Shown: positions 7,461 through 51,109, counted from the stretch's first letter. The stretch: DNA of 56,307 nt from an uncultured Clostridium sp. (GCA_964529035.1 CAZGUG010000003.1:1-56307); one strand, 5' to 3'. The notes: generated by a model from the letters alone, not told the origin. Numbers and translations: made by a program.

Positions 7461-9647
7461 TTAAGCCGTCTCCCTTTCTATTTTTCTTTCCTGCAGAAGT
7501 ATATATAGCATGCTTGTAATAAAAAATATGCTGCCGGTGGCGGAGGTCACCACACCGGAATCGTTGACCGCCATCCCTGAAGCCGCAGCCACCACCAGGG
7601 CCGACCAACCCTTGGTAAAATACGGGCGTTTTGCAAATACCCTTTTGAAGATACCCACCGGTCTGTAAAACAGTATCCCTGTCACCGCTATAACCGTAAT
7701 AAGCACTTTGGTCCAAAAAGTATATCTCAGCAGTTTAAGATTCATCAGGACCTTCCTCTGTACAATCCCAAGTATATGCAAAGGACCGGTTCTGACCGTC
7801 CCCTGAGCCGCTGCCGCCAGGTGAGACTGGTCTTCGAGAAATATCATATCCGCCAGCAAAAAAGCCGTTAATACAGCTGCCATTATTATTCCAATGGCCG
7901 CAGCATGCCTTATTCCAACCGGTACTTCCCTAATGCGCAGGGTAAAAAACCCGAAGGCCAAAAGGCAGGTAACGGCTCCTCCCATGTTGGCACCAAGGCC
8001 CGGATATCCTATCACAATAACTACAATGCAGAGCAAGGCTGTAATCAGCTTCAAACCGGCTCTGCCCTGCTCAAGAAGCGAACAGGAGGCAACTATCGCA
8101 CTGCCGGCGGCAACGCCCATATATTCGTTCCCAATACCGTAGTACCGGGCTCCTATTATCGGGTCGTAACCGAGAACCGAGTTTTTGATCATACCGCCGC
8201 CGGTTACAATATCCAGAATAATTGCAGCAGTTGTTATGCCGGATGTAAACAGCAGCATTTTGTTCGCATCCTTAATATACAATAATGCGGCATACCCGGC
8301 GGCTGCAACCGTAAGAACCGCCGCTGCGGACAAACCGGTAATTGTCTTAAGGCCGGCCAACGGCAGCAGAAGCAGAACAGCCGGAAAAAGCATTATGGAA
8401 ACAAGCGCAAACTCTTCCACCGGAACAAGCCTGCCCTCCCAAAACCCGGGATACAGTATTGTAAAAAGTCCAAGCAGTACCACAAATATTACAAACAATG
8501 CATAATTGTACAGTATGGGATATCTGAAATTGGATGTGTTAACGGTGTTTTCGTTTATTTTTTTTACCTCTTCCAGGTTGCCGGTCATCGGTACCACCCT
8601 TAAGGGCCGTCCGACAAGTTCATCCGTGGAGATACCGAAAAACTCCAGCACCGTAGGTGCTATATCTATACCGCCAACTATTCCGTCCCTGCGGGTTGTG
8701 CCGGAGGTAAGCAGCCCGGCCGGAAAATCGTCGCCGTACACAACCAGCGGTGTCAGCCTGGCTCCCCGTGATATACCGGCTTCCGAAGGATACGGAGTAA
8801 CAAGCATTACCAGCCAGTTTTTCGAATCCGCTCTTTCTTTAAGATGGCAAAGAAACTCACCTATCCTCCTCAGGGCATCGTATCTATGGGCCTGGTACAT
8901 TTGGTCGTTATACATGTCCCTGCTTTCTTCTATTCTTGTTAAATCACCGGTTTCAATAACAATAAAATCCGAACTCTTCAGCAGTTCTTCAAACAAAATT
9001 GTCATTTTGGAATAATCGGTGCGCCGACCGGTGGGAAAACCCCCATCTTCCATAAGTATTCCTTCGTCAACCACACCGTCATCCGCTATTCCGTCCCTGT
9101 CCATCGCAATTGATGCTGCCCATCTTATTTGGTTGTCCCCGCAGTCGGCATTTCCAAGCACTGCCGTCCTTAGGCCCTCACTTCTTAAAAAATGTCCCAA
9201 ACTGCCAACTACAGCACCGTATTCGCCCCTTTTATTCTGGCTTATCAGCCTGTTTATGTTCGGGTTTACCAGCATACCTTCGCTTACTGTCCGGCCTGTC
9301 CGGCTATAAAACAGCTTTTTTGCCTCCCGGTCAGCTTTCAGTGCCGCGGCCGCAGATGCCGTACCCTCGGCCCTTGCTCCGCTGCCAATATTGATGTAAC
9401 CCTTGCAGGCACTGTAGGTTCCCGAGGGTCTGTTGTTCATGATAGCAATAGACCCGCCGTCTATAATCTGCCTGAACCCGTGAAGGTCTTCCACATCCTC
9501 AAAGGATATTCTGTCAACTATCACAAGCACAGCCTTTTTATCGTTATCGTCGCAGCTTTTTGCCTGTGCCGCTTCGCAAAACAAAGCAAAAAAAATTAAA
9601 ATACAGGATGCTGCTATGCCCCCGATTGGTTTCACAAAGGATAACAC
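7461..9647 (-). CDS. Uncharacterised membrane protein: alkaline-phosphatase-like extracellular domain plus multi-TM C-terminus
   Basis: 728 aa; N-terminal signal/TM, VIVDRIS and GGIDIAPTVL segments reminiscent of the AlkP fold, then about 10 hydrophobic segments including GARYYGIGNEYMG. Confidence 0.6.
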   Translation of the reverse strand: MLSFVKPIGGIAASCILIFFALFCEAAQAKSCDDNDKKAVLVIVDRISFEDVEDLHGFRQIIDGGSIAIMNNRPSGTYSACKGYINIGSGARAEGTASAAAALKADREAKKLFYSRTGRTVSEGMLVNPNINRLISQNKRGEYGAVVGSLGHFLRSEGLRTAVLGNADCGDNQIRWAASIAMDRDGIADDGVVDEGILMEDGGFPTGRRTDYSKMTILFEELLKSSDFIVIETGDLTRIEESRDMYNDQMYQAHRYDALRRIGEFLCHLKERADSKNWLVMLVTPYPSEAGISRGARLTPLVVYGDDFPAGLLTSGTTRRDGIVGGIDIAPTVLEFFGISTDELVGRPLRVVPMTGNLEEVKKINENTVNTSNFRYPILYNYALFVIFVVLLGLFTILYPGFWEGRLVPVEEFALVSIMLFPAVLLLLPLAGLKTITGLSAAAVLTVAAAGYAALLYIKDANKMLLFTSGITTAAIILDIVTGGGMIKNSVLGYDPIIGARYYGIGNEYMGVAAGSAIVASCSLLEQGRAGLKLITALLCIVVIVIGYPGLGANMGGAVTCLLAFGFFTLRIREVPVGIRHAAAIGIIMAAVLTAFLLADMIFLEDQSHLAAAAQGTVRTGPLHILGIVQRKVLMNLKLLRYTFWTKVLITVIAVTGILFYRPVGIFKRVFAKRPYFTKGWSALVVAAASGMAVNDSGVVTSATGSIFFITSMLYILLQERKIERETA

Positions 9648-10076: not shown

Positions 10077-12713
10077 TTATTTTAACTGTGATTGTAGGAT
10101 TTCATATGCCTTGTCAAGGGCTTCCGTTATTTTTTCCGGTTTTCTTGCACCGGCCTGGGCCATATCCGGTTTTCCCCCGCCACCACCGCCGGCAACCGCT
10201 GCAGCTTCTTTAATAATCCTGCCGGAATGGGCTCCGGCCGTAACGGCATCCTTGGAAGCCATAGCCACCATGTTTATTTTTTCACCATTTACCGAGGCAA
10301 GTACCACCACTCCGGATTCCAGTTTGTCCCTCAGGCTGTCGCCAAGGTTTCTCAGCCCGTTCATGTCAAGGTTATCCACGCGGGCTGCAACCAGTTTGAC
10401 GCCCTTAACATCCTTTGCACGGTTTAACAGCCTTTCGGTTTCTCCTGCCGCAAGCCTTTGTCTTAATGAATCCATTTCCCGATCCTTTGTTTTTAGCCCT
10501 TCCATAAGGCTAATTATCCTGCCTTTTAGGTTTTCCGGGGAGGATTTCAGTAAGAGAGCCGCTTCCTTCAAAATGTTTTCCCTGCCCTTCAAATATTCAA
10601 GCGCTTTTCTTCCGGTAAGGGCTTCTATACGCCTCACTCCGGCTGCTATACCGCTCTCTCCGGCAAGCACAAACACCCCGATGGACGAGGTTCTGTCAAC
10701 ATGCGTCCCCCCGCACAGCTCGATGCTGAAATCGCCAGCTTTAACCACCCGTACCAGTTTTCCGTACTTTTCGTCGAAAAGGGCGGTGGCCCCCATTTCC
10801 CTGGCACTTTCCAAATCGGTTTGCAGCGTTTCAACCGGCAGATCGTCAAGTATCCTTTGGTTTACAATGGTCTCCACCTGTTCCAATTGTTCTGCTGTCA
10901 CTGCCGAAGTGTGTGTAAAATCAAACCTCAACCGGTCCGGCTCCACAAGCGAACCTGCCTGCTCCACGTGATTTCCCAGCACTTTTTTCAACGTCCTGTG
11001 CAAAAGGTGCGTGGCGGTGTGGTTTCGTGCAATATCTGTCCTGCGACCATCATTGATAACGGCAGAAACCTTCATCCCGGGTTTTATTATACCTGTCTTT
11101 ACATAGCCTATATGCAGGAATTTTCCCTGCAGGGCTTTGCAGTCCTCCACTTCCATAACAAAGGCATTATTTTTTATTTCACCCGTATCTCCTACCTGGC
11201 CCCCGCTCTCCGCGTAGAAGGAAGTGGCATCCAATACCACTGCTATTCTGTCTCCCTCCACCGCCTGTTTCACAAGGGCATTATCCTTTAAAACTGCCGC
11301 AATTTCTGTTTCCAGGCTGTTTTTTTCATAGCCTTCAAATCGTGTGGCAGCTATTCCTTCCAACTGCGAAGACGCCTCGTCGCTCCATCCCACAGCCTGG
11401 GCTTCCGCCCTGGCAGCCCTTGCCCTTTCCCTTTGAGCCGCCATTTCAGCCTCAAACCCCTTTTCGTCCACCGTTATGCCCTCTTCTTCCAGTATATCCC
11501 GGGTCAAATCCAGCGGAAACCCGTAGGTATCATACAACTTGAAGGCCTTGTCACCCGGCAGGACATCGGTTCCCGCATCCTTTATTCCGCCTGCGTATTC
11601 CTGCAGGATGTTAAGCCCCTGGTCCAGCGTCTCCTGGAACCTTTCTTCCTCCAGCCTTATAACTCGCTGTATATAGTCCCTTTTTTCCTCCAGGACCGGG
11701 TAGGCCTTTCCGGATACCTCTATGACCCTTGTTGATACATCATACAAAAAGCTTTTATGAACTCCCAGCAGCTTTCCATGACGGGCGGCCCTCCGCAGGA
11801 GTCTTCTCAGCACATAGCCTCTGCCCTCGTTGGAAGGCAACACCCCGTCGCTAATCATATTCGCAACTCCTCTTATATGGTCTGTTATGACCCGTATCGA
11901 TACGTCGGCTTTCGGGTCCCGCCCGTACTTTTTACCGGTTATTTCTGCAATGTATTCAAGTATATGACGGATTGTGTCCACCTCAAACATGGTATCCACG
12001 CCCTGCATTATCGCCGCCATTCTCTCCAGTCCCATTCCGGTATCGATGTTGGGATTTTCCAGCCTGTGGTATACGCCCTCCGCATCCCTGTCAAACTGTG
12101 TGAACACCAGGTTCCAGAATTCCACATACCTGTCACAGTCACATCCCACTTTACAGTCTTCGCTACCGCAGCCGTATTCTTCTCCCCTGTCAAAGTAGAT
12201 TTCCGAACAGGGGCCGCAGGGCCCGAGGCCAATTTCCCAGAAGTTATCCCCCTTGCCCATTCTGACAATTCTGTCCGCCGGTATTCCTATCGATTTATGC
12301 CAGATTTCAAAGGCTTCATCGTCATCCTTGTATATGGTAATCCATAACCTGTCCTCCGGCAGCTTCAAATCTTCGGTAACAAACTCCCATGCCCATGCTA
12401 TGGCTTCGTTCTTAAAATAGTCTCCGAACGAGAAGTTACCCAGCATTTCAAAAAAAGTACCGTGCCTTGCCGTTTTCCCAACCCTTTCAATATCCGGTGT
12501 TCTGATACACTTCTGACACGTGGTTACCCTTTTGGCCGGCGGGGTCTTCGCCCCGGTGAAATACGGCTTTAAAGGAGCCATACCGCTGTTTATCAAAAGC
12601 AGGCTTTTATCATTTTGCGGAACAAGTGGAAAACTCGGCAGCCTCAGATGGTCTTTGCCCTCAAAAAACTTCAGATATCGTTCCCGGATTTCGTTCAAAC
12701 CCAATTGTTCCAT
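10077..12713 (-). CDS. alaS: Alanine--tRNA ligase
   Basis: [35 protein letters not shown] and ELCGGTHV motifs; 878 aa. Confidence 0.99.
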
Positions 12714-12821: not shown

Positions 12822-13056
12822 ACAAAAACCCCCGTCTCTGACCGGTGTCAGGGACGGGGGTTAACCCGCGGTACCACCCTAATTGCCTAATTTGGCCTCT
12901 TAAACCTGTAACGGATATATCCGGCAGTATCTACTGTAGGTTTCGATACTGCAACTCCGGGACTGCTTCACCCGCCCAGTTCCGAAAGCATTTCAGCCGT
13001 GTGCTTTCTTTCTGTGGAAACGGAATCGGGTTACTCCTTCCCTTCACTGTTTTTCC
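12822..13056 (-). promoter_or_regulatory. T-box riboswitch with Ala specifier, upstream of alaS
   Basis: AGAAA/GCTGAAA stem I motifs, GAA-GCA specifier (GCA = Ala at 12964-12966), GGTGGTACCGCG T-box at 12867-12878, then terminator AACCCCCGTC...GACGGGGGTT with a T run. Boundaries approximate. Confidence 0.93.
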
Positions 13057-20469: not shown

Positions 20470-20736
20470 TTATAAAACCTTTTTATAGTCTGTGAACTGT
20501 CCCACCCGGACTGCTTTATATACGCCCTTTATCGACGCTCTGCATCCCATAATCTGGTCCCGGATGTCTTTTATTTCTATCAAATCACCCCATGCAGCCA
20601 GCGAATAATTGCAGCTTTTGCCCAGTCTTCCCGGAGTTGGTACAAGTTCAACCTTAAAGCCCCTTTCCTTAAGCCTGGCTTCTACGAAAATAGCCTGATT
20701 TCTCGAATTGAACACGAAATAATACCCGGCCGTCAT
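20470..20736 (-). CDS. DUF3343-like small protein
   Basis: YYFVFNSRNQAIFVE...LVPTPGRLGKSCNYSL pattern; ATG 20736 preferred as start. Confidence 0.7.
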   Translation of the reverse strand: MTAGYYFVFNSRNQAIFVEARLKERGFKVELVPTPGRLGKSCNYSLAAWGDLIEIKDIRDQIMGCRASIKGVYKAVRVGQFTDYKKVL

Positions 20737-20814
20737 CTCCCAAACACCCCTCACTGTTTTATTCAATATATTACTGGCAGCTGTGTTTTGGGGTGACTTC
20801 ATCTTATGATTTTT

Positions 20815-21849
20815 TTACCCGTTCAAAACCAGGCTTACTGTTTGAACTGTCCTTTTTACATCTTCTTCGGTTATATAATAATGGACTGCAAACCGCACCA
20901 CCGGCGAAGGTGTCCCGTTTATCAGTATTCCGTACGGTTTAAGCCCTTCGGCAATTTGTATTCCGTTAAGGCCGGCTGCGCTAAAGTCCACCATTATCAG
21001 GTTTGTCTGGACCTTGTCAATATCAACCGAAACCCCATCCAGCGAATTAAGGCCCCTTGCAAGAAACATCGCGTTTTCATGGTCTTCCCCAAGCCTTTTG
21101 CTCATCTTTTCCATGGCTATTATTCCGGCTGCGGCAACGATACCCGCCTGTCTCATACCGCCTCCCAGCATTTTTCTGTATTTTCTTGCTCTTTCTATGA
21201 ATTCTCCGCCGCCTGCCAGCACCGATCCTATAGGAGCGCACAGTCCCTTGGACAGGCAGACATTAACCGAATCGCAGTACCGTGCAATCTCCTCCGCCTT
21301 CACATTGAGGTAGGCGGCAGCATTGTATATGCGGGCGCCGTCAAGGTGCACCGGTATGTTATGCTTTTGTCCCACCCGGTGAATTTTTTCCATCGCTTCA
21401 ATGGGTACCACCCTTCCCCCGGCCTTATTGTGGGTGTTTTCAACGCATATCAGCTTTGTTTCGGGAAAATGTATATTTTCTGTGCGGATTTTCTCTTCCA
21501 CTGCCCGATCATCCATTACCCCGTCTGTTTCGGTAACCAGGGCAGTCTGTACTCCGGCCAGGTACGCTATTCCACCCACTTCATTGACATAAATATGGCT
21601 GTTTTCACCAAGTATTATCTCGTCGCCCCTTTTTGTATGTGTCATCACCGCAACCTGGTTTGCCATTGTACCGCTGGCGACAAACAGCGCCGCTTCCTTA
21701 CCCATCTCGCTGGCTGCCAGTTCCTCCAGCCTGTTTACGGTAGGGTCATCCCTGTATACATCATCGCCTACTTCGGCTCTGTACATGGCCTGCCGCATTT
21801 CATCGGTGGGTTTTGTTACCGTATCACTTCTAAGATCAATTACTCCCAT
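20815..21849 (-). CDS. ltaE: Low-specificity L-threonine aldolase
   Basis: IDLRSDTVT, GDDVY, ENTHN, HLDGAR, CLSKGL (PLP Lys) and LGGGMRQAG motifs. Confidence 0.96.
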   Translation of the reverse strand: MGVIDLRSDTVTKPTDEMRQAMYRAEVGDDVYRDDPTVNRLEELAASEMGKEAALFVASGTMANQVAVMTHTKRGDEIILGENSHIYVNEVGGIAYLAGVQTALVTETDGVMDDRAVEEKIRTENIHFPETKLICVENTHNKAGGRVVPIEAMEKIHRVGQKHNIPVHLDGARIYNAAAYLNVKAEEIARYCDSVNVCLSKGLCAPIGSVLAGGGEFIERARKYRKMLGGGMRQAGIVAAAGIIAMEKMSKRLGEDHENAMFLARGLNSLDGVSVDIDKVQTNLIMVDFSAAGLNGIQIAEGLKPYGILINGTPSPVVRFAVHYYITEEDVKRTVQTVSLVLNG

Positions 21850-21850
21850 T

Positions 21851-21985
21851 CTATTTCCTCCTTTTAGTGGAATGTCCCCGATTTGTACTGCCCGGTTTCA
21901 AAGTAGAAATTCTACACAGAAACAAAAAAACCTTCCCCTTAAGGAAAGGCTTAAATCCAAACTGATTCCGCGCGCTTATGTTCAC
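21851..21985 (-). pseudogene. 44-codon leader ORF whose first 9 residues resemble a Mop/TOBE N-terminus; relic or regulatory leader
   Basis: RBS AAAGAGGTG, 5 nt, GTG; reads MNISARNQFGFKPFLKGKVFLFLCRISTLKPGSTNRGHSTKRRK*; stop ends 1 nt before the ltaE ATG. Confidence 0.5.
21920..21952 (-). terminator. Intrinsic terminator inside the ltaE leader
   Basis: CCTTTCC-TTAAG-GGGAAGG stem followed by TTTTTTT on the minus strand. Confidence 0.7.
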
Positions 21986-30342: not shown

Positions 30343-31419
30343 TTATTCCACCAGTATCTTCCTAACATATGGTGAAGTCATGCCTCCCAGCATCCCACCG
30401 TATGTGAGGTCAAAGGATAATATATCGCCTACCCGGCAGTCTTCTTCGCAGTCGGATATATCGAGTATTGTATGATCGCTGCTGCCCCCCAGTACAATTA
30501 TTCCACTGTCATGGGGAACAAGGGTATCCGGCTGTATATCCTGCTTTCCTACTGCTATTATTGCCCTTTTTCTTATACCCCGGTCTGTGAACACAGGGAC
30601 TTTGCCAAAGGCGTCTACGCCTATCTCGCCTATGGGTATGGACGGCTTCTCCTTAACCTCAACTATTTCAGCCTTCAGCACAAAGGTATCGTTATGAAAG
30701 TTGTCCCTTTCAATCCCGAAAATTGTCTCCCTTCCCAGAAGTATTGCCTCACCAATTCTCAGATTATTAATTCTTTCCGGCATCAGGCCTTTATAAACAA
30801 GATGCAAACTGCTGGAATTACCCCCGGAAACAATGCCGACTTCGACACCGTATTTCTTTTCAATTTTTTCTGCATATTCCGCAAGGGAGCTCAGGTTTTC
30901 CACGCTGGGCACCACCCCACCGTAGCAGGACAGGTTGGTGCCCAGGCCGGCAACTTCAATGCCTTCAATATCCAGCAGGCGGCCGTAGGCTGCAATTATC
31001 TCGTCCAGCCAGAAGCCTTCCCTTAAATCTCCTATGTCCACCATTGCCAAAACCCTCTGTACGGTACCTTTCCTGCTTGCTTTTTTACCAAGCTCCTCGG
31101 CGGTGCTTATTTCGGATATCAAAACCATGTCTGCAAAGTCAATCACATCGTCCAGTTCACTTATCATGGGAACTCTCAACAGCACCTTTTCCGCGTCCAT
31201 GTTTTTTAACTTTTGCAGGTTTTCTAGCCGGGAATCCGCCAGGGCTTTGGCTCCGCCTTTTATTAAGCTTTTCGCTATTTCGGGATATGCACAGAAACCC
31301 TTAGTGACAGCAGTAACGTCTATGTTTAATGCACTGCACAGTTTCACCGTTTTGCTACAGTTGCTTTCTATTTTTTTTAGATAAACCTCTATTCTTGGAT
31401 ATCGGTCCATGCTTTTCAC
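30343..31419 (-). CDS. Alanine/ornithine racemase-family PLP enzyme (Orr-like)
   Basis: YPRIEV, VTK (PLP Lys), DSRLENL, GDLREG, NLSCYGG, SGGNSS, LRIGE and GSSDH motifs. Confidence 0.85.
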   Translation of the reverse strand: MKSMDRYPRIEVYLKKIESNCSKTVKLCSALNIDVTAVTKGFCAYPEIAKSLIKGGAKALADSRLENLQKLKNMDAEKVLLRVPMISELDDVIDFADMVLISEISTAEELGKKASRKGTVQRVLAMVDIGDLREGFWLDEIIAAYGRLLDIEGIEVAGLGTNLSCYGGVVPSVENLSSLAEYAEKIEKKYGVEVGIVSGGNSSSLHLVYKGLMPERINNLRIGEAILLGRETIFGIERDNFHNDTFVLKAEIVEVKEKPSIPIGEIGVDAFGKVPVFTDRGIRKRAIIAVGKQDIQPDTLVPHDSGIIVLGGSSDHTILDISDCEEDCRVGDILSFDLTYGGMLGGMTSPYVRKILVE

Positions 31420-31432
31420 TCCAATCCGCCTT

Positions 31433-32446
31433 TTAACAAACCTTATCGGGTGTTATATCTTCAATTCCTGTGCATCCTGTCATAAGCATTGTCTCTTTCA
31501 GTTCGTTAATTAGCTTCTCTGTATACATACTGACAGCCTCGGCTCCGTTTCCAACAGCCATAACGGCATAGGGCCTTCCTACAAGAACCGCATCGGCGCC
31601 CAATGCAAGGGCTTTAAAAACATCCACCCCTGTCCTTATGCCGCCGTCAACAAAAATCTTGACCTCTTTACCAACGGCTTGTCTTATTTCGGGCAGTACT
31701 TCACATGTGGCGGGAGTATAGTCCAGCACCCTTCCGCCGTGATTGGATACCACAATACCGTAAACACCTGCCTCGGCAGCCTTTTCCGCGCCCCTTGCCG
31801 TCATAATCCCCTTAGGTATAAACGGAAGTTTAGTAAAGGATACTATTTCGGCAAGGTCCTCAACGGTTTTGGAGAATACCGGTTTGCCCGATTTTGCCAG
31901 GTGTATAAGCCCTGCAGAATCTATGTCCATGGCAACCGCCATGGCCCCAATCTTTTCAACAGTTTTTATCTTTTGGAATACTTCTTCCTTCTTCCATGGT
32001 TTTAAGGTAGGCACTGCTATTCCGCCGGTATCTTTTATCGGTTCCAGCGGAGCACTAAAGCAGACGTCGTCGGCGCCGTCCCCTGTAAAGGCTGCACACC
32101 CGGCCTTTACGGTACCTGTCACCACTGCAGCGGCATAGTCGGCTTCACTTATAACGTCATTATAATTAAACCTGAAACCCCCTATGGGAGCTGCAAAAAT
32201 GGGAGCCTTGAAGCTGTGGCCGAATAGTTCAACCGAAGTGTCCTGTCCTTCGTTCCGGTAAATAGTATCCATTACAATTCTAACCCTTGCCAGGTATTCA
32301 TAGTTCCTTATAAAACTGCTGCCTGTACCCTTTCCGCCTACCCCCGGCACTTTTCCCCTGCAGGCAACCCCGTTGCACTCTCTGCATACCATACAGTGGG
32401 GCGCCAGTATCTCCCTGGCTCTGCCTAAAACCGTGTTGTAATCCAT
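31433..32446 (-). CDS. FMN-dependent alpha-hydroxy-acid dehydrogenase family protein
   Basis: CMVCRECNGVAC N-terminus, PKGIMT, VSNHGGRVLD, DGGIRTG and VGRP motifs. Confidence 0.9.
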   Translation of the reverse strand: MDYNTVLGRAREILAPHCMVCRECNGVACRGKVPGVGGKGTGSSFIRNYEYLARVRIVMDTIYRNEGQDTSVELFGHSFKAPIFAAPIGGFRFNYNDVISEADYAAAVVTGTVKAGCAAFTGDGADDVCFSAPLEPIKDTGGIAVPTLKPWKKEEVFQKIKTVEKIGAMAVAMDIDSAGLIHLAKSGKPVFSKTVEDLAEIVSFTKLPFIPKGIMTARGAEKAAEAGVYGIVVSNHGGRVLDYTPATCEVLPEIRQAVGKEVKIFVDGGIRTGVDVFKALALGADAVLVGRPYAVMAVGNGAEAVSMYTEKLINELKETMLMTGCTGIEDITPDKVC

Positions 32447-34461: not shown

Positions 34462-34519
34462 TTAATATTCCTCCACAAACATATTTTTAATAAGAATACA
34501 AAAAAACAGGGGCAAGAAA

Positions 34520-34702
34520 AATCCCCACTATGCCGTGGTCGGTTGTTTTGAACCTGCTCACGCAGGTGGGTATCCTCCTGAATATCTTACATGTCCCCTC
34601 GTGGGAGGCTTATGTGCCACATCCAGAGCTCAGATTCCCTATGTCATAATGTTGGCTCAAAACTATACCGATAATCACGTACACAGCAGGGCTGCTCCCT
34701 CT
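34520..34702 (-). ncRNA. ssrS: 6S RNA
   Basis: ~180-nt segment with its own promoter between aspS and tcdA, the locus of B. subtilis 6S-1 (bsrA); contains TTTGAGCCAACATT and ACCCACCTGC..GCAGGTTCAAAA segments I recognise from clostridial 6S. Ends approximate. Confidence 0.85.
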
Positions 34703-34845: not shown

Positions 34846-35073
34846 TTATTCAAGCTTCTGGTCCAGTCTGCTTTTGTCAAAACCTACTATGAATTCATCA
34901 TCAATGGCTATTACCGGTACAGCCATGATTCCTCTTTCCATAAGCTCTTTCCTGGCCTGGGTGTCCTGCTGCACATCCTTTTCCTCAAAGTCCACGCCTT
35001 TTTGCGAAAGATACTCCTTCGCTGTTATACAGTGGGGTCATGTCTTTGTCGTATAAACAACAACCCTGTCCAT
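34846..35073 (-). CDS. Selenocysteine-containing glutaredoxin/NrdH-like protein (U12-P-H-C15), 75 aa; not in the ORF track
   Basis: MDRVVVYTTKT[TGA]PHCITAKEYLSQKGVDFEEKDVQQDTQARKELMERGIMAVPVIAIDDEFIVGFDKSRLDQKLE*; the TGA (35038-35040) is at the first redox Cys position; RBS GGGAGGG. Confidence 0.85.
34992..35037 (-). promoter_or_regulatory. Candidate bacterial SECIS element
   Basis: GCGAAGGA-GTA-TCTTTCGC hairpin (35004-35022) starting 15 nt after the UGA, with G in the apical loop; possible lower CCAC/GTGG pairing. Confidence 0.65.
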
Positions 35074-35150
35074 ATTATCCCTCCCAATTGAATTAATTTT
35101 ACTGCCTGTAAATAGAATACCCACAAATCCCATTTAAAAACATGCCTTTG

Positions 35151-36923
35151 TTAATCCAAGTCAAGTTTGATGTGGATTTCCCTAAGCTGTTCCTTGTCCG
35201 CTTCGGCCGGTGCTTCGGTCATAAGGCAGGCGGCATTCTGTGTCTTGGGGAACGCTATCACATCCCTTATATTGTCTTTTCCCGCCACCAGCATAACCAG
35301 CCTGTCAAGCCCGTACGCAATACCGCCGTGGGGCGGTGCCCCGTACTTAAAAGCCTCCAGCAGGAAACCGAACTTTTCCCGGGCCTTCTCCCGGGTAAAA
35401 CCCAGTACATTAAACATTTTCTGCTGCAGTCGGCTGTCGTGTATTCTTATACTTCCCCCTCCTAGCTCTATGCCGTTTACCACCAGGTCGTAGGCATTCG
35501 CCCGCACCTGTTCGGGATGTGTATCCAAAAGCTCAATATCCTCCCGTACCGGCGATGTAAAGGGATGATGCACCGCAACAAACCTGTTCAGTTCACTGTC
35601 ATGCTCCAACAGTGGAAAATGCGTGACCCATGTGAAGCTGTACACGCCTTTGTCTGCCAGCCCCAGCCTTCTGCCAATCTCAAGCCGCAGCTGTCCCAGC
35701 GAATCGTATACTATCCCGGGTTTATCGGCCACAATGAGCAACAGGTCGCCCGCTTCCGCGCCCATTCTTTTTGCAACTGCATCCAATTCTTCCCCGGTTA
35801 GAAACTTGGCTATGGGAGATTTTATTTCGCTTTCGGTTATTACCATCCATGCAAGTCCCTTTGCCCCGTATTGTTTTACGAATTCTGTCAGGGCATCTAT
35901 TTCCCTGCGGCTGAATTTTACTCCGCAGCCCTTGGCGTTTATACCCCGGATTTGTCCGCCGCCCCTGGCTGTTTCGCCAAACACCCTGAACTCCGAATCC
36001 TTAACCAAATCTGTTATGTCGGTAAGTTTCATGCCGAACCTGGTGTCCGGCTTGTCGGAACCGTAGTTTTCCAACGCCTGTTTATGGGTCATTCTCTCAA
36101 AGGGCGTTGTCAGCCTGACGCCAAGGTTTTTTTCGAATACATAGGCAATAAGCTTTTCGTTTATATCCATAACGTCTTCAGCATCCACAAAGGACATTTC
36201 AATATCAATCTGCGTAAACTCGGGCTGTCTGTCCGCCCTTAGGTCTTCATCCCTGAAACAGCGTGCAATCTGGAAGTATTTATCCACCCCCGAGGCCATC
36301 AGCAGCTGTTTGAAAAGCTGTGGAGACTGGGGAAGCGCAAAAAACTTGCCCGGGTTAACCCTGCTGGGAACCAGGTAATCCCTTGCCCCTTCCGGTGTGG
36401 GTTTTGTCAGCATCGGTGTCTCGATTTCCCAGAAACCGTTTTTGTCAAGAAACTCGCGCACATCCATGGTAAGCCGGTGGCGCAGCCTTAGGCTGTTCTG
36501 CATTGAAGGCCTTCTTAAATCAAGATACCTGTACTTGAGCCGGAGAACCTCGGTAATGTTGGAATTATCCTCGATGTATACCGGCGGTGTCTCTGCCCTG
36601 CTCAGCACCTCTATGACCTCGCCCATTATTTCTATTTCCCCGGTCTTCAGCTTGGGGTTCACCGCATCCTTTTTCCTTTTTACCACGGTACCTTTTATCC
36701 CCACCACGTATTCGCTTCTCAGGGTCCCGGCTGTTTCAAAGGCCTGCATCGATACTTCTCCGTCAGCCACCACCTGTACTATTCCGGTTCTGTCCCTTAT
36801 ATCCAGAAAGATAAGCCCTCCCAGATCCCTTCTTCTTTGTACCCAACCTGCCACCACAGCCCGGGTTCCCGTGTCTTCTACAGCCAGATGCCCGCACATG
36901 TGTGTTCTTTTAAGTCCTTCCAT
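35151..36923 (-). CDS. aspS: Aspartate--tRNA ligase
   Basis: RRRDLGGLIFLD, LKYRYLDLRR, PEGARDYLVP, ALPQSPQLFKQ, HHPFT and PPHGGIAYGLDR motifs. Confidence 0.99.
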   Translation of the reverse strand: MEGLKRTHMCGHLAVEDTGTRAVVAGWVQRRRDLGGLIFLDIRDRTGIVQVVADGEVSMQAFETAGTLRSEYVVGIKGTVVKRKKDAVNPKLKTGEIEIMGEVIEVLSRAETPPVYIEDNSNITEVLRLKYRYLDLRRPSMQNSLRLRHRLTMDVREFLDKNGFWEIETPMLTKPTPEGARDYLVPSRVNPGKFFALPQSPQLFKQLLMASGVDKYFQIARCFRDEDLRADRQPEFTQIDIEMSFVDAEDVMDINEKLIAYVFEKNLGVRLTTPFERMTHKQALENYGSDKPDTRFGMKLTDITDLVKDSEFRVFGETARGGGQIRGINAKGCGVKFSRREIDALTEFVKQYGAKGLAWMVITESEIKSPIAKFLTGEELDAVAKRMGAEAGDLLLIVADKPGIVYDSLGQLRLEIGRRLGLADKGVYSFTWVTHFPLLEHDSELNRFVAVHHPFTSPVREDIELLDTHPEQVRANAYDLVVNGIELGGGSIRIHDSRLQQKMFNVLGFTREKAREKFGFLLEAFKYGAPPHGGIAYGLDRLVMLVAGKDNIRDVIAFPKTQNAACLMTEAPAEADKEQLREIHIKLDLD

Positions 36924-36928
36924 ACCTT

Positions 36929-38200
36929 TTACTCCCCTTTTTCCGTCAGTATCGTTTCTTTAATTTTTTGTATGTCCAGTTCCACTTGGATTTCATTGCC
37001 GCTTTCCATATTCTTCAGGTTAACGGTGTTTGTACCCAGTTCCTCGTCCCCAAGCACAATGGTAAAACCAGCGCCTATCCTATCCGAGTATTTCATCTGA
37101 GCCCTTAGACTTCTGCCCATATGATCGCACTCCGCCTTAACCCCGGCAGCCCTTAGTTTATATACTATATCCAGGGTTTTCTTCGCCGCTTCATCTCCTA
37201 TGCTTGCCACAAACAGCTGGATGCCTTCATCCTTTTTAATCTCTATGCCCTGGCTTTCAATGGTAAGCAGCAGCCTTTCTATACCCAGCCCAAAGCCTAT
37301 GCCCGGTGTTTCTGGGCCGCCGCACTCTTTTACAAGCCCGTCATATCTGCCGCCGCCGCAGACGGTACCCTGGGAGCCTATATCCCGGGATACTATTTCA
37401 AAGGCGGTCTTTGTATAATAATCAAGTCCCCTTACTATGGCAGGGTCAACGGTAAACTCGATGCCCATTCCTTTAAGGTGCTCCTTAAGCTTTTCAAAGT
37501 GCACCTTGCACTCATCACACAGGTAATTCATCATAAGCGGTATCCCCTCCACCGCTTTCTGACATTTTTCTTCCTTGCAGTCTATTATACGCATGGGGTT
37601 TGTATTAAATCTTTCGTTGCAGGTTTTACACAGGTGAGGCAGCCTTTGGCTGAGGAACTTTCTTAAATTAACGCCATATTTCTTTCTGCATTTTGGACAG
37701 CCGACGCTGTTTATCCTCAGTTCCAGGCCTTTAATTCCCAGCCTTTCAAAAAACATCATTGCCAGGGAAATCACTTCGGCATCCGCCGAAGCGTAGGGCG
37801 ATCCAATCGTTTCTATCCCGAACTGGTGAAAGGCCCTGAGCCTCCCGGACTGCGGCCGTTCGTACCTGAAACAGGGGGTTATATAGTATGCCTTAAAGGG
37901 CTGAATATCGGCGTACAGTTTGTGCTCAATGAATGCCCTTACCACCGGTGCGGTAACTTCCGGTTTCAGGGTTATACTTCTGCCGCCCTTGTCTTCAAAG
38001 GTATACATTTCCTTTTGGACAACATCCGTTGTTTCGCCTACACCCCTTTGGAACAGTTCGGTGTCTTCAAACAGGGGCGTCCTTATTTCGCCAAAACCAA
38101 ACTCACTGCAAATCCTTCTGAACATGCTCTCAACGTAGTGCCATTTATACACTTCCCCCGGCAGTACATCCCTGGTGCCTCTGGGCGCTTTTATACTCAT
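36929..38200 (-). CDS. hisS: Histidine--tRNA ligase
   Basis: IKAPRGTRD, RYERPQSGRLR, VRGLDYYT, VCGGGRYD and GFGLGIER motifs; start ATG 38200. Confidence 0.99.
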   Translation of the reverse strand: MSIKAPRGTRDVLPGEVYKWHYVESMFRRICSEFGFGEIRTPLFEDTELFQRGVGETTDVVQKEMYTFEDKGGRSITLKPEVTAPVVRAFIEHKLYADIQPFKAYYITPCFRYERPQSGRLRAFHQFGIETIGSPYASADAEVISLAMMFFERLGIKGLELRINSVGCPKCRKKYGVNLRKFLSQRLPHLCKTCNERFNTNPMRIIDCKEEKCQKAVEGIPLMMNYLCDECKVHFEKLKEHLKGMGIEFTVDPAIVRGLDYYTKTAFEIVSRDIGSQGTVCGGGRYDGLVKECGGPETPGIGFGLGIERLLLTIESQGIEIKKDEGIQLFVASIGDEAAKKTLDIVYKLRAAGVKAECDHMGRSLRAQMKYSDRIGAGFTIVLGDEELGTNTVNLKNMESGNEIQVELDIQKIKETILTEKGE

Positions 38201-38224
38201 AATTTCTCCTCCTTTTTCCTCAAA

Positions 38225-38475
38225 AAACAACAAATCCCCAATGACATGCATTAACTGTCATCAGGGACGGGGGTTGCCCGCGTTGCCACCCTGCTTGGAT
38301 AATTAGTATCCCGCTCGTGGGAATTAACGCTTCCAACGTAACGGCCTACTGCGCTTTTCGGCCGAAAAACTCGGGAAGGTCCTTCACCTGCCGTAAAACG
38401 CTGGGAAGCTTTCAGTCCCGGCTTCCCTTCCCTGTACGCCGCCCGGCGGTTACTCTTTCCGTCATTGTCGTTATT
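38225..38475 (-). promoter_or_regulatory. T-box riboswitch upstream of hisS-aspS, probable Asp (GAC) specifier
   Basis: AGGGAA/GACTGAAA stem I motifs, GGTGAAGGAC specifier loop (GAC at 38379-38381), GGGTGGCAACGCG T-box and terminator TCCCTGATGACA/TGTCATTGGGGA with a T-rich tail. Confidence 0.92.
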
Positions 38476-49027: not shown

Positions 49028-49534
49028 TCAAACTCCTGAATACTCCTTCGCCAGCCCCACATACGCAAGGGCCCTTTTTTTAATTTCATCTGCTTCCTTG
49101 TCGGACGTTCTTCTTACCACTTTCCCTGGGGACCCCATAACCACCGAATAGGGCGGAATTTTTCTGCCCGGTGTAATAAGGGATCCTGCACCTATTATCG
49201 AATGCCCGCCTATTACTGCACCGTCCATTATTATTGATCCCATTCCGATCAGGCAGTTGTCCGCAATGGTACATCCGTGCAGCAGCGCTCGGTGCCCTAC
49301 CGAAACGCAGTCACCTATTATGGTGGGAAAACCGCCGCTGCAGTGTATAATGCACCCGTCCTGAATATTGGTACGACTGCCTATTGCAATTTTGTCCACA
49401 TCCGCTCTCGCTATTGTTCCATACCAAAGGCTTGAATATTCTCCCAGGGAAAAATCCCCTGTTATTACCACACCCTCGGCTACAAACGCTTTTTTGTTAA
49501 TACGGGGATTACTGCCCCTGTAACCTATTAGCAT
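49028..49534 (-). CDS. Gamma carbonic anhydrase family protein
   Basis: NIQDGCIIH, VGHRALLHGCTI and GMGSIIMDGA hexapeptide motifs with metal-binding His residues. Confidence 0.92.
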   Translation of the reverse strand: MLIGYRGSNPRINKKAFVAEGVVITGDFSLGEYSSLWYGTIARADVDKIAIGSRTNIQDGCIIHCSGGFPTIIGDCVSVGHRALLHGCTIADNCLIGMGSIIMDGAVIGGHSIIGAGSLITPGRKIPPYSVVMGSPGKVVRRTSDKEADEIKKRALAYVGLAKEYSGV

Positions 49535-50900
49535 TGTCTCCCTCCCTTATTCTTGACAAAACCTTCAGGGCTATTGCACACTCTATCCTTTTCTTTTCCA
49601 TTTCACAACCGATTTTGTAGCTCTTTTTAATACTTCCGGTTGTGTTGTATGAGTTTGCATGACAACCACCGCTGCACCAAAGCCTCGCCCAGCAGCCGCT
49701 GCAGTCTTCCTTGCTGTACACGTGACAGTATCTAAAGGAATCGGATATGTGCCTGTCAAGTTGGCCTTTAAAAACGCTTCCCATTAAAAAGGACTTGTTT
49801 CCGACAAACTGGTGACAAGGATATATGTCCCCTTCCGGGGTAACCGCAAGGTACTGATTACCCGCACCGCAGCCCGAAAGCCTTTTCACCGCGCAGGGAC
49901 CGTTGTACAGGTTCACATTGAAATGATAAAAATTAAACTTTTCCCTTGTCCCTTCCCTCTTTAAACATTCGTCAAACAGCCTGTCATATTCGTTAAGTAT
50001 CCTATCCAAATCCTGTTCCCTTATTGAATAGGGTTCTTCGGGTGTGCACACCACCGGTTCAACCGATACCTCCTTAAAGCCCAGGCCCGCCATGTGAAGG
50101 ACGTCTCTGCAGAAATCCAGGTTTTCTCTGGTAAAGGTTCCCCTCACGTAATAGCTTTTGTCCTTTCTCCTTTGCACAAACCTTCTTATATTATCTGTTA
50201 TGGCGTTATAGCTGCCCGAGCCGTCCCTAAAGCACCTCATCCTGTCATTTACCTCTTGCCTGCCGTCCAGGCTCAGGACGACATTATACATGTTTTCATC
50301 CAGGTATTCAATGGTGCTGCGATCAAGGGCAAGGGCATTGGTTGTAAGTGTGAACTTAATGGTCTTGTTGGATGCACCGGCTTTCTTTCTTGCATAATCC
50401 ACTGTCTTTTTTACCACATCCAGGTTCATAAGTGGCTCTCCGCCGAAAAAGTCTATTTCTATATTACGCCTGCCCTTCGATTTTTCCATAAGGAAGTCCA
50501 CCGCCTTATAGGCGGTATTACAGTCCATTAAAAGCTTGTCTCCGTTAAAATTACCCTGTGACGCAAAGCAGTATCTGCAGTTTAGATTGCAGTCGTGGGC
50601 AACATGCAGGCATAGCGCTTTAACTACGTTATCCTCAAACCTTCGTTTTGCTGTATCTGCATGACGGTCCTCCGAGAACAGAAGCCCTTCCGCCCTTAGC
50701 TGTTTTATCTCCCCTAGGCCTTCTTCTATTTCTTCCTGAGAATATTCGCCCCTCAGCTTGTCCTGTATAAATGCATCATCATATTCCGGATAATAATCAA
50801 GTATCCTGAATACAAGACTGTCCACCACATGGACAGCCCCGCTTGCCACATCCAGCACTATCGGAACTTTGTTTTTAATGTATTTATGTATTAAAGCCAT
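49509..50900 (-). CDS. scfB: SCIFF/ranthipeptide radical SAM-SPASM maturase
   Basis: KALCLHVAHDCNLNCRYC, DFFGGEPL, CGAG, YPCHQF and C..C.....CSGGCHAN motifs; adjacent to the SCIFF precursor. Confidence 0.95.
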   Translation of the reverse strand: MALIHKYIKNKVPIVLDVASGAVHVVDSLVFRILDYYPEYDDAFIQDKLRGEYSQEEIEEGLGEIKQLRAEGLLFSEDRHADTAKRRFEDNVVKALCLHVAHDCNLNCRYCFASQGNFNGDKLLMDCNTAYKAVDFLMEKSKGRRNIEIDFFGGEPLMNLDVVKKTVDYARKKAGASNKTIKFTLTTNALALDRSTIEYLDENMYNVVLSLDGRQEVNDRMRCFRDGSGSYNAITDNIRRFVQRRKDKSYYVRGTFTRENLDFCRDVLHMAGLGFKEVSVEPVVCTPEEPYSIREQDLDRILNEYDRLFDECLKREGTREKFNFYHFNVNLYNGPCAVKRLSGCGAGNQYLAVTPEGDIYPCHQFVGNKSFLMGSVFKGQLDRHISDSFRYCHVYSKEDCSGCWARLWCSGGCHANSYNTTGSIKKSYKIGCEMEKKRIECAIALKVLSRIREGDNANRLQGQ

Positions 50901-50941
50901 TTGTATCATCCTGTCGTGTTTACTGTTTTTGATTTTTACTG

Positions 50942-50968: not shown

Positions 50969-51109
50969 TTACCTGTTCTCACATTCCTGATTTGCAACGG
51001 TACATGAGGTCTTGCATGCGGACTGGCATGAAGACTGGCATTCTCCACAGCCGCCCTTGTCGGCAGTATCTTTAAATATTGCTCCTACTATTGTCTTTAT
51101 GTACTTCAT
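50969..51109 (-). CDS. scfA: SCIFF (six Cys in forty-five) ranthipeptide precursor, 46 aa; not in the ORF track
   Basis: MKYIKTIVGAIFKDTADKGGCGECQSSCQSACKTSCTVANQECENR*; six Cys; RBS GGAGGGG. Confidence 0.97.
   Translation of the reverse strand: MKYIKTIVGAIFKDTADKGGCGECQSSCQSACKTSCTVANQECENR

Follow-up and report, generated by a model that had tools for sequence, protein, structure and literature searches.

A probable selenocysteine-encoding glutaredoxin-like gene downstream of hisS-aspS in an uncultured Clostridium

Introduction

The UxxC glutaredoxins (PF00462) are an experimentally verified family of prokaryotic selenoproteins (2026 review, PMC13188914). Three genes for selenocysteine (Sec)-containing glutaredoxins were known in 2006, in Geobacter sulfurreducens and Alkaliphilus metalliredigenes (PMC1794560). 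Glutaredoxin-1 (cGrx1) of Clostridium (Alkaliphilus) oremlandii OhILAs (Kim et al., 2011, Mol Microbiol 79:1194, as cited in PMC13188914 and PMC4479559) is a native selenoprotein with the catalytic Sec in a U(or C)-P-X-C motif, was crystallized in the C-P-H-C form (structures 7C10, 7C12 and 7C13) and is the proposed reductant of the selenoprotein MsrA (Lee et al., 2020, PMC7642778). The Sec/Cys pair of this protein is numbered U13/C16 (PMC4479559). The subject of the present analysis is a small redoxin gene, here termed grx, in a 56,307-nt stretch of DNA from an uncultured Clostridium sp. (the window) which probably encodes a further member of this family.

Redoxins of the YruB/Cp9 type possess 75-80 residues, an N-terminal [IV]-x-[ILV]-[YF]-[ST] motif, a C/U-x-x-C active site, a cis-Pro (VP) and a G-F motif (PMC3720550). 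As related in the same source from Reynolds et al. (2002), the gene for Cp9 in C. pasteurianum is located between genes for an NADH-dependent thioredoxin reductase (TrxR)-like protein and a peroxiredoxin, and Cp9 shuttles electrons from the former protein to the latter. Decoding of UGA as Sec in bacteria is associated with a selenocysteine insertion sequence (SECIS) 3' of the codon. The consensus derived from the bSECISearch model (Zhang and Gladyshev, 2005), as summarized in PMC13188914, specifies a loop of 3-9 nt, an upper stem of 4-16 bp, a G as first or second base of the loop, a spacing of 16-37 nt from UGA to loop, and a minimum free energy (MFE) of <= -7.5 kcal/mol. The SECIS elements of different selenoprotein genes generally are dissimilar (PMC13188914), and fossil SECIS-like structures are known in other selenoprotein families (Zhang et al., 2006, PMC1794560).

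Results

A glutaredoxin frame interrupted by a single TGA

The grx coding sequence spans 35073..34846 on the minus strand, the strand on which the gene coordinates are given, and comprises 75 codons as judged by the reading frame and family matches. The frame begins with ATG (35073-35071), which is preceded at a distance of 5 nt by the ribosome-binding site (RBS) GGGAGGG (35085-35079), and ends with TAA (34848-34846), all as read from the sequence. The minus-strand translation is MDRVVVYTTKT*PHCITAKEYLSQKGVDFEEKDVQQDTQARKELMERGIMAVPVIAIDDEFIVGFDKSRLDQKLE*, whereas translation of the plus strand of 34846-35073 yields no sensible protein. The sole interruption is a TGA at codon 12 (35040-35038) within T-U-P-H-C. 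Alignment with homologues that carry TGT or TGC at this codon places the proposed Sec at the attacking position of U-P-H-C. The resolving residue of the U-x-x-C motif is encoded by TGT at codon 15 (35031-35029) and the corresponding C15 is invariant in the family alignment. An earlier sequence-only reading of this DNA had described a 75-codon frame with a good RBS and a TGA at codon 12, exactly where the attacking Cys of CxxC belongs: all of these features are present, on the minus strand, and the placement of the TGA is borne out by the homologues.

Profile searches were conducted with U12 written as C. The protein matched the Pfam glutaredoxin family PF00462 over residues 4-62 (E = 2.8e-20; 72.7 bits against a cut-off of 22.9) and passed the NCBIfam model TIGR02196 for YruB-family glutaredoxin-like proteins (90.3 bits against 88.55). 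The values obtained with the NrdH-redoxin model TIGR02194 (55.3 bits against 85.75) and the UXX-star selenoprotein model NF041212 (59.1 bits against 66) were below the respective cut-offs, the cut-off of the Grx3 model was not reached by the protein, and the scores with the UXX-star subfamily models were far below theirs. Further features of the family are the length of 75 residues, a V-V-V-Y-T strand followed by T-U-P-H-C, and residues P53, G64, F65 and D66 that are invariant in the alignment. The best match among solved structures was 7C10, the C. oremlandii glutaredoxin-1 (E = 3.1e-27), with identity at 41 of 71 residues (57.7 %). Thus, the assignment as a glutaredoxin made from the sequence alone is solid in view of the PF00462 and TIGR02196 matches, and the link that it drew to the Sec-glutaredoxin of C. 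oremlandii is closer than was assumed: the same U-P-H-C motif is present in the best match in the PDB.

The TGA is conserved in the same organism and in relatives

A look-up via the neighboring ThiF-family protein recovered six independent assemblies, five of sludge from ENA and one Logan run, which are 99.3-99.96 % identical to the window and of which all six possess the TGA. Public runs in which the window DNA occurs number 20 and were drawn from 16 studies. When GTDB species were scanned at one genome each, a set from which the window species itself is absent (best match 86 %), eight related loci were obtained; homologous loci are designated here by L numbers. In four metagenome-assembled genomes (L007-L010) the encoded protein is 82-86 % identical to that of the window and the gene order hisS-aspS-grx-ThiF-glyA is kept, whereas the neighboring proteins are only 55-81 % identical to their counterparts. 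The fifth locus, L011, is from the isolate Caloranaerobacter sp. DY30410 and specifies a protein with 64 % identity. Each of these five loci has TGA at the same codon within T-U-P-H-C, and the next relatives (L012, with C-P-Y-C, L013 and L014) carry TGC or TGT instead. As TGA is identical in six independent assemblies, and is retained at the same codon in L007-L010 and L011, the codon to judge from these comparisons is neither a sequencing error nor a private nonsense mutation. The sequence-only reading had named an error, or a private mutation with close relatives all carrying Cys, among the circumstances that would undo its proposal; the assemblies and five species-level genomes point the other way.

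In L007-L011 the reading frame continues uninterrupted up to and beyond the TGA. Between the window and L010, codons 1-11 differ by five synonymous and two non-synonymous changes, and codons 13-74 by 27 and 10, respectively. Among the close relatives non-synonymous changes do not outnumber synonymous ones, a pattern which indicates purifying selection of comparable strength on both sides of the UGA. An AGGAGG-type RBS also is conserved at the same place in L007-L012. Of the 49 window genes, 12 end with TGA as an ordinary stop codon, and an internal TGA occurs in none apart from grx. Therefore, the standard code and a site-specific recoding event are implied.

A hairpin downstream of the UGA fits the bacterial SECIS consensus

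The predicted core hairpin, GCGAAGGA-GUA-UCUUUCGC, is located at 35022-35004 on the minus strand, within grx codons 18-24 (A-K-E-Y-L-S-Q), and comprises 8 bp closed by a loop of 3 nt. The hairpin starts 15 nt past the UGA, the first base of the loop is G, and 23 nt separate the UGA from the loop. The core is the center of both the MFE and the centroid structures of a 71-nt segment. In both structures the core is surrounded, via an internal loop, by a lower stem CCAC.GU / GC.GUGG that extends the element to 35035-34992. The predicted energies are -8.3 kcal/mol for the core alone, -14.7 kcal/mol for the 45-nt element and -17.2 kcal/mol (MFE) for the 71 nt. The lower stem folds also in L007 and L009, but is not conserved family-wide. 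The values for the window element (loop GUA, 8 bp, 23 nt, -8.3 kcal/mol) lie within every range of the bacterial SECIS consensus as that is summarized above. The 8-bp hairpin with an apical G that had been noticed 15 nt after the UGA is therefore present. The hairpin of a single sequence nevertheless is weak evidence, and its significance comes from the comparison with homologues.

Sec and Cys forms alternate and the hairpin accompanies the UGA

A metagenome scan with the alignment of the relatives' proteins contributed 80 more loci which, with the genome loci and the window, provided 87 distinct sequences. The aligned codon is TGA in 29 of these loci and TGT or TGC in the remaining 58, so that the alternation of Cys and TGA for which the sequence-only reading had suggested a check is evident across the family. 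The TGA forms have the motifs U-P-H-C, U-P-Y-C, U-Q-S-C, U-M-F-C and U-A-Y-C.

Pairing was scored in the gap-free region in a fixed register, that is, positions +18..+25 against +29..+36, numbered from the U of codon 12. At least seven of the eight pairs were formed in 25 of 29 TGA forms compared to 1 of 58 Cys forms, with means of 7.1 and 3.7 pairs, respectively (Mann-Whitney p = 1.3e-11, indicative only as the sequences are related). The first loop base was G in 24/29 TGA forms and in 15/58 Cys forms. A comparison of whole-segment MFE values between Sec and Cys forms was discarded as it was confounded by G+C content (0.45 and 0.34, respectively), and was replaced by the pair count and a same-peptide subset. 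Among sequences that encode AKE[YF]L, at least seven pairs were found in 19 of 22 TGA forms and one of nine Cys forms. As the difference persists when the peptide is the same, the TGA forms choose pairing codons, namely GCG AAA GAG UUU CUU UCG. On these counts the hairpin tracks the UGA and not the peptide, and a SECIS would explain the conservation at the nucleotide level.

Covariation analysis of the 29 TGA forms showed 84.7 % of cells to be paired compared to 41-62 % when the 3' partner was slid, and compensatory changes occur at three stem positions (C-G to U-A; G-C to A-U and C-G; G-C to A-U). For a covariance model, 23 TGA forms were used, and the window and its syntenic relatives were left out. 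The model matched the window solely at 35040-34997 with 55.9 bits (E = 5.8e-14), the next best match being 8.6 bits, and scored 48-60 bits with L007, L009 and L010. Cys forms scored <=26 bits, except L057 with 38 bits. A SECIS finder had been proposed as a check in the sequence-only reading: agreement with the published consensus, specificity for TGA forms, compensatory changes and an out-of-sample covariance-model match all speak for the element.

The consensus hairpin of the TGA forms, GCGAAAGA-GUU-UCUUUCGC, is 19 nt in length and almost invariant across hosts whose local G+C content in the 63 nt after the TGA ranges from 0.27 to 0.62. The exceptional Cys form L057 (129-353), with TGC at the catalytic codon, possesses the perfect hairpin GCGAAAGA-GUU-UCUUUCGC and attains its 38 bits without a UGA. 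The locus looks like a recent Sec-to-Cys conversion that has left a fossil hairpin. The same contig carries a paralogue at ~1989-2225 with an in-frame TGA (G-U-M-L-C) and seven of eight hairpin pairs.

Certain TGA forms do not have the standard hairpin in register. L085 and L087 form two and four of eight pairs, respectively; L011, from the only cultured carrier, forms five pairs with a loop AAUA that has no G; and L088 has a shifted 6-bp stem, CCAAGG/CCUUGG. Alternative SECIS geometries are one possible explanation, and gene decay is another. Separately, the U-Q-S-C forms (L069, L070, L078, L079, L089, L092 and L093) constitute a subgroup from soil metagenome contigs with a G+C content of 0.54-0.59 in the 63 nt after the TGA. 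The genes are situated in mer-like operons. Directly upstream are genes for a regulator of the MerR type and for a protein with a MerB-like alkylmercury lyase domain, and downstream are genes for a zinc-ribbon protein of the LysW type and for a membrane protein that has a CC motif. No dedicated NCBIfam model was found for the subgroup, for which TIGR02196 was the best model with a score below the cut-off. These forms may be a selenoprotein tied to organomercury handling.

The gene is missing or truncated in public annotation

The full grx gene was called in none of the six assemblies of the same organism, one of which has a 42-aa fragment. When 1.84 billion representative proteins were searched exhaustively with a profile of the part downstream of the TGA, the closest representatives were fragments of 57-66 aa that start a few residues past the motif; one of them, P0001, is 80 % identical and starts MEYLSQKG.... 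Full-length representatives P0004 and P0005 carry T-C-P-H-C, and P0001, P0006, P0009, P0010 and P0012-P0017 are either N-terminally truncated or bear W. The Sec forms thus look to be systematically mis-annotated in public protein sets, as anticipated in the claim that standard callers miss the gene.

Genomic context and transcription

The grx gene starts 77 nt 3' of aspS (35151-36923, minus), which in turn follows hisS (36929-38251, minus). A T-box leader is located upstream of hisS-aspS (38260-38474, minus; Rfam). Downstream, the gene for 6S/SsrS RNA (34518-34695, minus; Rfam, 104 bits) is 150 nt from the grx stop codon and is preceded at 34741-34713 by the only promoter-like site predicted on the minus strand of this region, TTGAAA-17-TATCAT with extended TG. 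As prediction for the minus strand gave neither a sigma-70-like promoter nor a terminator in the interval from aspS to grx, the grx gene probably is co-transcribed with the T-box-controlled hisS-aspS operon, possibly as its last gene. Contigs of runs labelled as RNA cover grx without a variant at the TGA. One such contig, from a compost run, spans 35000-35361 and includes aspS, the grx start codon and the TGA; relative to the window, its codons 2-4 carry one conservative and two synonymous changes, and the TGA is unchanged. The 6S RNA gene is covered at higher depth than grx in the contigs of RNA-labelled runs.

The arrangement of aspS, the 6S RNA gene and a tcdA gene of the ThiF family probably is an old one in Firmicutes, in which case grx would be an insertion into a conserved housekeeping locus.

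Among the homologous loci, a gene for a TrxR-like protein (Pyr_redox_2, ~305 aa) is located downstream of the grx homologue in six (L049, L013, L032, L067, L083 and L090). The gene begins within ~10 nt of the homologue in five of these and ~1.2 kb downstream in L013. L049 is a TGA form with, in addition to the downstream TrxR-like gene, an open reading frame (ORF) with a flavodoxin domain directly upstream. An ArsR-type regulator is encoded directly upstream of the homologue in nine loci, including the TGA form of Caloranaerobacter. No gene for a TrxR-like protein, peroxiredoxin or methionine sulfoxide reductase was detected in the window by Pfam annotation.

Observations that weigh against Sec decoding

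A number of observations count against grx being a Sec-encoding gene. Machinery for Sec insertion was not detected in the DNA searched. ARAGORN found no tRNA, and hence no selC, in the 56-kb window, and selA, selB and selD were absent from the window by Pfam annotation. In tblastn searches of 564 kb of collected DNA, E. coli SelA and SelD gave no match and E. coli SelB produced generic GTPase-domain matches only, in Cys-form loci. Around 10 kb beyond each end of the window, reached via other assemblies (~20 kb in total), contained no sel gene. The absence of sel genes from the window and the ~20 kb of flanks is uninformative for a genome of several Mb. As a scan for frames broken only by TGA identified no other TGA-interrupted gene in the window, there also is no independent sign of Sec use by the organism.

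Further points concern the hairpin and its neighborhood. In the single sequence the 71-nt segment is only marginally unusual (z = -2.0 compared to shuffles). By generous criteria (>=8 bp in the stem, 3-10 nt in the loop with G as its first or second base, start 8-25 nt after TGA), 46 of the window's 1508 TGA trinucleotides (3 %) are followed by a hairpin of this kind. Rfam did not provide a matching SECIS family at the gathering threshold, and at E <= 10 the region gave chance hits only. As the hairpin in one sequence is only weakly significant, the case rests on the comparison with homologues. In that comparison the Sec and Cys sets differ in G+C content as noted above and are phylogenetically non-independent, which makes the p-values indicative only, and the hairpin overlaps a conserved peptide so that the nucleotide conservation is in part a coding constraint. 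Finally, the runs labelled as RNA may contain DNA.

Candidates from the TGA scan at 20815-21975 and 5.7-6.6 kb proved to be ordinary genes. A short gene call of 50 aa that follows the one for an ArsP permease in the left flank (L097:20456-20608) was considered as a possible truncated second selenoprotein, but the small ORF is complete and lacks a redox motif 5' to it. The only selenium-associated family in the window is PF11823, 'putative Se/S carrier protein-like', to which a gene at 20470-20802 (minus) belongs (E = 1.6e-12). This gene is directly downstream of a Beta_elim_lyase (threonine-aldolase-like) gene (20815-21849, minus) and is not evidence of Sec decoding.

Other features of the window

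A second T-box leader (12847-13056, minus) is located upstream of alaS (10077-12713). A SCIFF (six-cysteines-in-forty-five) peptide gene, MKYIKTIVGAIFKDTADKGGCGECQSSCQSACKTSCTVANQECENR, is present at 50969-51109 (minus) and is followed by the gene for its radical SAM maturase (49509-50909, minus). The 728-aa ORF at 7461-9647 (minus) begins with a signal-like N-terminal segment and did not match Pfam at E <= 1e-5; it was called also, without a domain, in another assembly (L097:4004-6178). The segment 22064-25078 (minus) contains an ORF for a BadF/HgdC-like activase and two DUF2229/HGD-D (2-hydroxyacyl-CoA dehydratase-like) genes; genes for an FMN-dependent dehydrogenase and an Ala_racemase_N protein are situated nearby (30343-32446). 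This gene set points to an amino-acid-fermenting lifestyle. Sec-dependent reductases are common in organisms with this lifestyle.

Discussion

The grx gene very probably is a functional gene for a Sec-containing redoxin in which U12-P-H-C15 replaces C-P-H-C. The proposal in the sequence-only reading that this is a real selenoprotein gains support from conservation of the TGA, Sec/Cys alternation, a TGA-specific hairpin and homology to cGrx1. According to the mechanism that we infer for Sec insertion, for the Sec machinery, and for the donor and clients, the hairpin 15 nt past UGA-12 would recruit SelB-GTP-Sec-tRNA(Sec) during translation. UGA-12 then would be read as Sec and not as a stop, despite TGA being an ordinary stop codon elsewhere in the genome. 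The product would be a small selenol/thiol (dithiol-type) electron carrier. Sec12 would attack a disulfide, or a sulfenic or selenenic acid, of a client such as methionine sulfoxide reductase or peroxiredoxin, Cys15 would resolve the mixed selenenylsulfide, and the oxidized U-x-x-C motif could be re-reduced by a TrxR-like flavoprotein or a low-molecular-weight thiol.

Three other explanations of the in-frame TGA can be envisaged. The locus might be a pseudogene in which a nonsense mutation has inactivated a former Cys-glutaredoxin gene, an explanation with which the behavior of gene callers, which leave the locus empty or call a fragment, and the failure to find Sec machinery in the window, the ~20 kb of flanks or the 564 kb searched would agree. 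Yet the TGA is kept while the interrupted frame is better conserved (82-86 % identity) than the neighboring housekeeping proteins (55-81 %), neither further stops nor frameshifts have accumulated, synonymous changes outnumber non-synonymous changes in both halves, the RBS is conserved and the TGA-specific hairpin is maintained. Decay would show no such conservation and the comparative data therefore contradict a pseudogene, which we regard as very improbable. A similarly slight chance attaches to a shorter product that is started 3' of the TGA, for example from the 49-aa GTG ORF at 34995..34846, with the 5' part as a leader or micro-ORF and the hairpin as a regulatory structure. Databases hold such short ORFs for the closest relatives (P0001, P0006, P0009 and P0010), but their start points vary between relatives (M or V, at different residues) as expected for artefacts. 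Moreover, a start after residue 12 or 26 would lose strand beta-1 and the whole redox motif, given that the Pfam match covers residues 4-62, codons 1-11 encode the conserved [IV]-x-[ILV]-[YF]-[ST] beta-1 motif with mostly synonymous change, and it is the upstream ATG that is preceded by the strong RBS.

The UGA might instead be decoded otherwise than as Sec, either by near-cognate read-through as Trp or Cys or by lineage-wide reassignment of UGA. Two representatives of the family (P0013 and P0014) have W at the Sec position and some pipelines read Trp, and no Sec machinery was found in the DNA searched. The W forms are most simply explained as translations under genetic code 4 or 25. The use of TGA to end 12 of 49 genes in the window, with no other in-frame TGA, argues for the standard code. 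In addition, it is specifically Cys that takes the place of the UGA in homologues, at a catalytic position where Trp would abolish activity, the UGA is accompanied by an element of the SECIS consensus, and the closest characterized homologue is a native selenoprotein. Decoding other than as Sec is thus improbable, if marginally less so than the pseudogene and the shorter product, and insertion of Sec at codon 12 is the reading that is preferred here.

A more speculative extension, which we consider unlikely on present comparisons, is that the Sec form is a mobile or very ancient 'UGA-plus-SECIS cassette' that, in the clade of the window, has been placed in the T-box-controlled hisS-aspS unit directly upstream of the 6S RNA gene. 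The idea draws on the 19-nt hairpin in the codons for A-K-E-[F/Y]-L-S, the wide range of local G+C content of the hosts and the fossil hairpin of L057. Were it true, the element would be constrained beyond generic SelB binding or have spread by horizontal transfer, and expression of a selenium-dependent redoxin would be tied to aminoacyl-tRNA status.

As the gene is absent or truncated in the assemblies inspected, and the nearest representatives are truncated or W-bearing, the selenoprotein content of anaerobic-digester Clostridia is under-counted. A simple covariance model recovers Sec-redoxin genes of this type. The family offers a clean internal control in that TGA and Cys forms of one gene occur together with one fossil hairpin, and Caloranaerobacter sp. 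DY30410 is an isolate that carries a TGA form and could serve for the study of Sec insertion. The gene leaves general knowledge of selenoproteins unchanged and extends a family whose existence and biochemistry had been described before.

Comparison with known systems places the hairpin and the protein as follows. In common with the bacterial SECIS consensus, as summarized in the review cited above, the window element is a stem-loop immediately 3' of the UGA in the coding region with a loop that starts with G followed by U; it differs in being family-specific and conserved at the nucleotide level across hosts of widely different G+C content. The NrdH-redoxins share a small glutaredoxin fold, and weak similarity in hidden Markov model searches, and are reduced by thioredoxin reductase. 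However, their motif is C-[VMI]-Q-C in place of U-P-H-C and no nrd genes or nrdIEF operon are near to grx. The Cp9/YruB redoxins of C. pasteurianum and C. novyi (TIGR02196), to the extent that the source cited above describes them, resemble the window protein in length, in a Grx-like C-P-[YW/H]-C motif and in the beta-1 motif. Cp9 has Cys where Sec is proposed here, and no TrxR-like or peroxiredoxin gene is adjacent in the window, although the TrxR-like gene near to the grx homologue in six other loci is reminiscent of cp34 beside cp9. The closest counterpart is cGrx1, which has the same fold, size and U-P-H-C motif, with U13/C16 corresponding to U12/C15 of the window protein. In contrast to C. 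oremlandii, in which MsrA is the proposed client, the window contains no MsrA gene; its host belongs to an uncultured lineage of sludge Clostridia/Bacillota. The location of grx between aspS and the 6S RNA gene also distinguishes it from cGrx1, and the arrangement hisS-aspS-grx-6S RNA would add a syntenic clade to the Sec-glutaredoxins.

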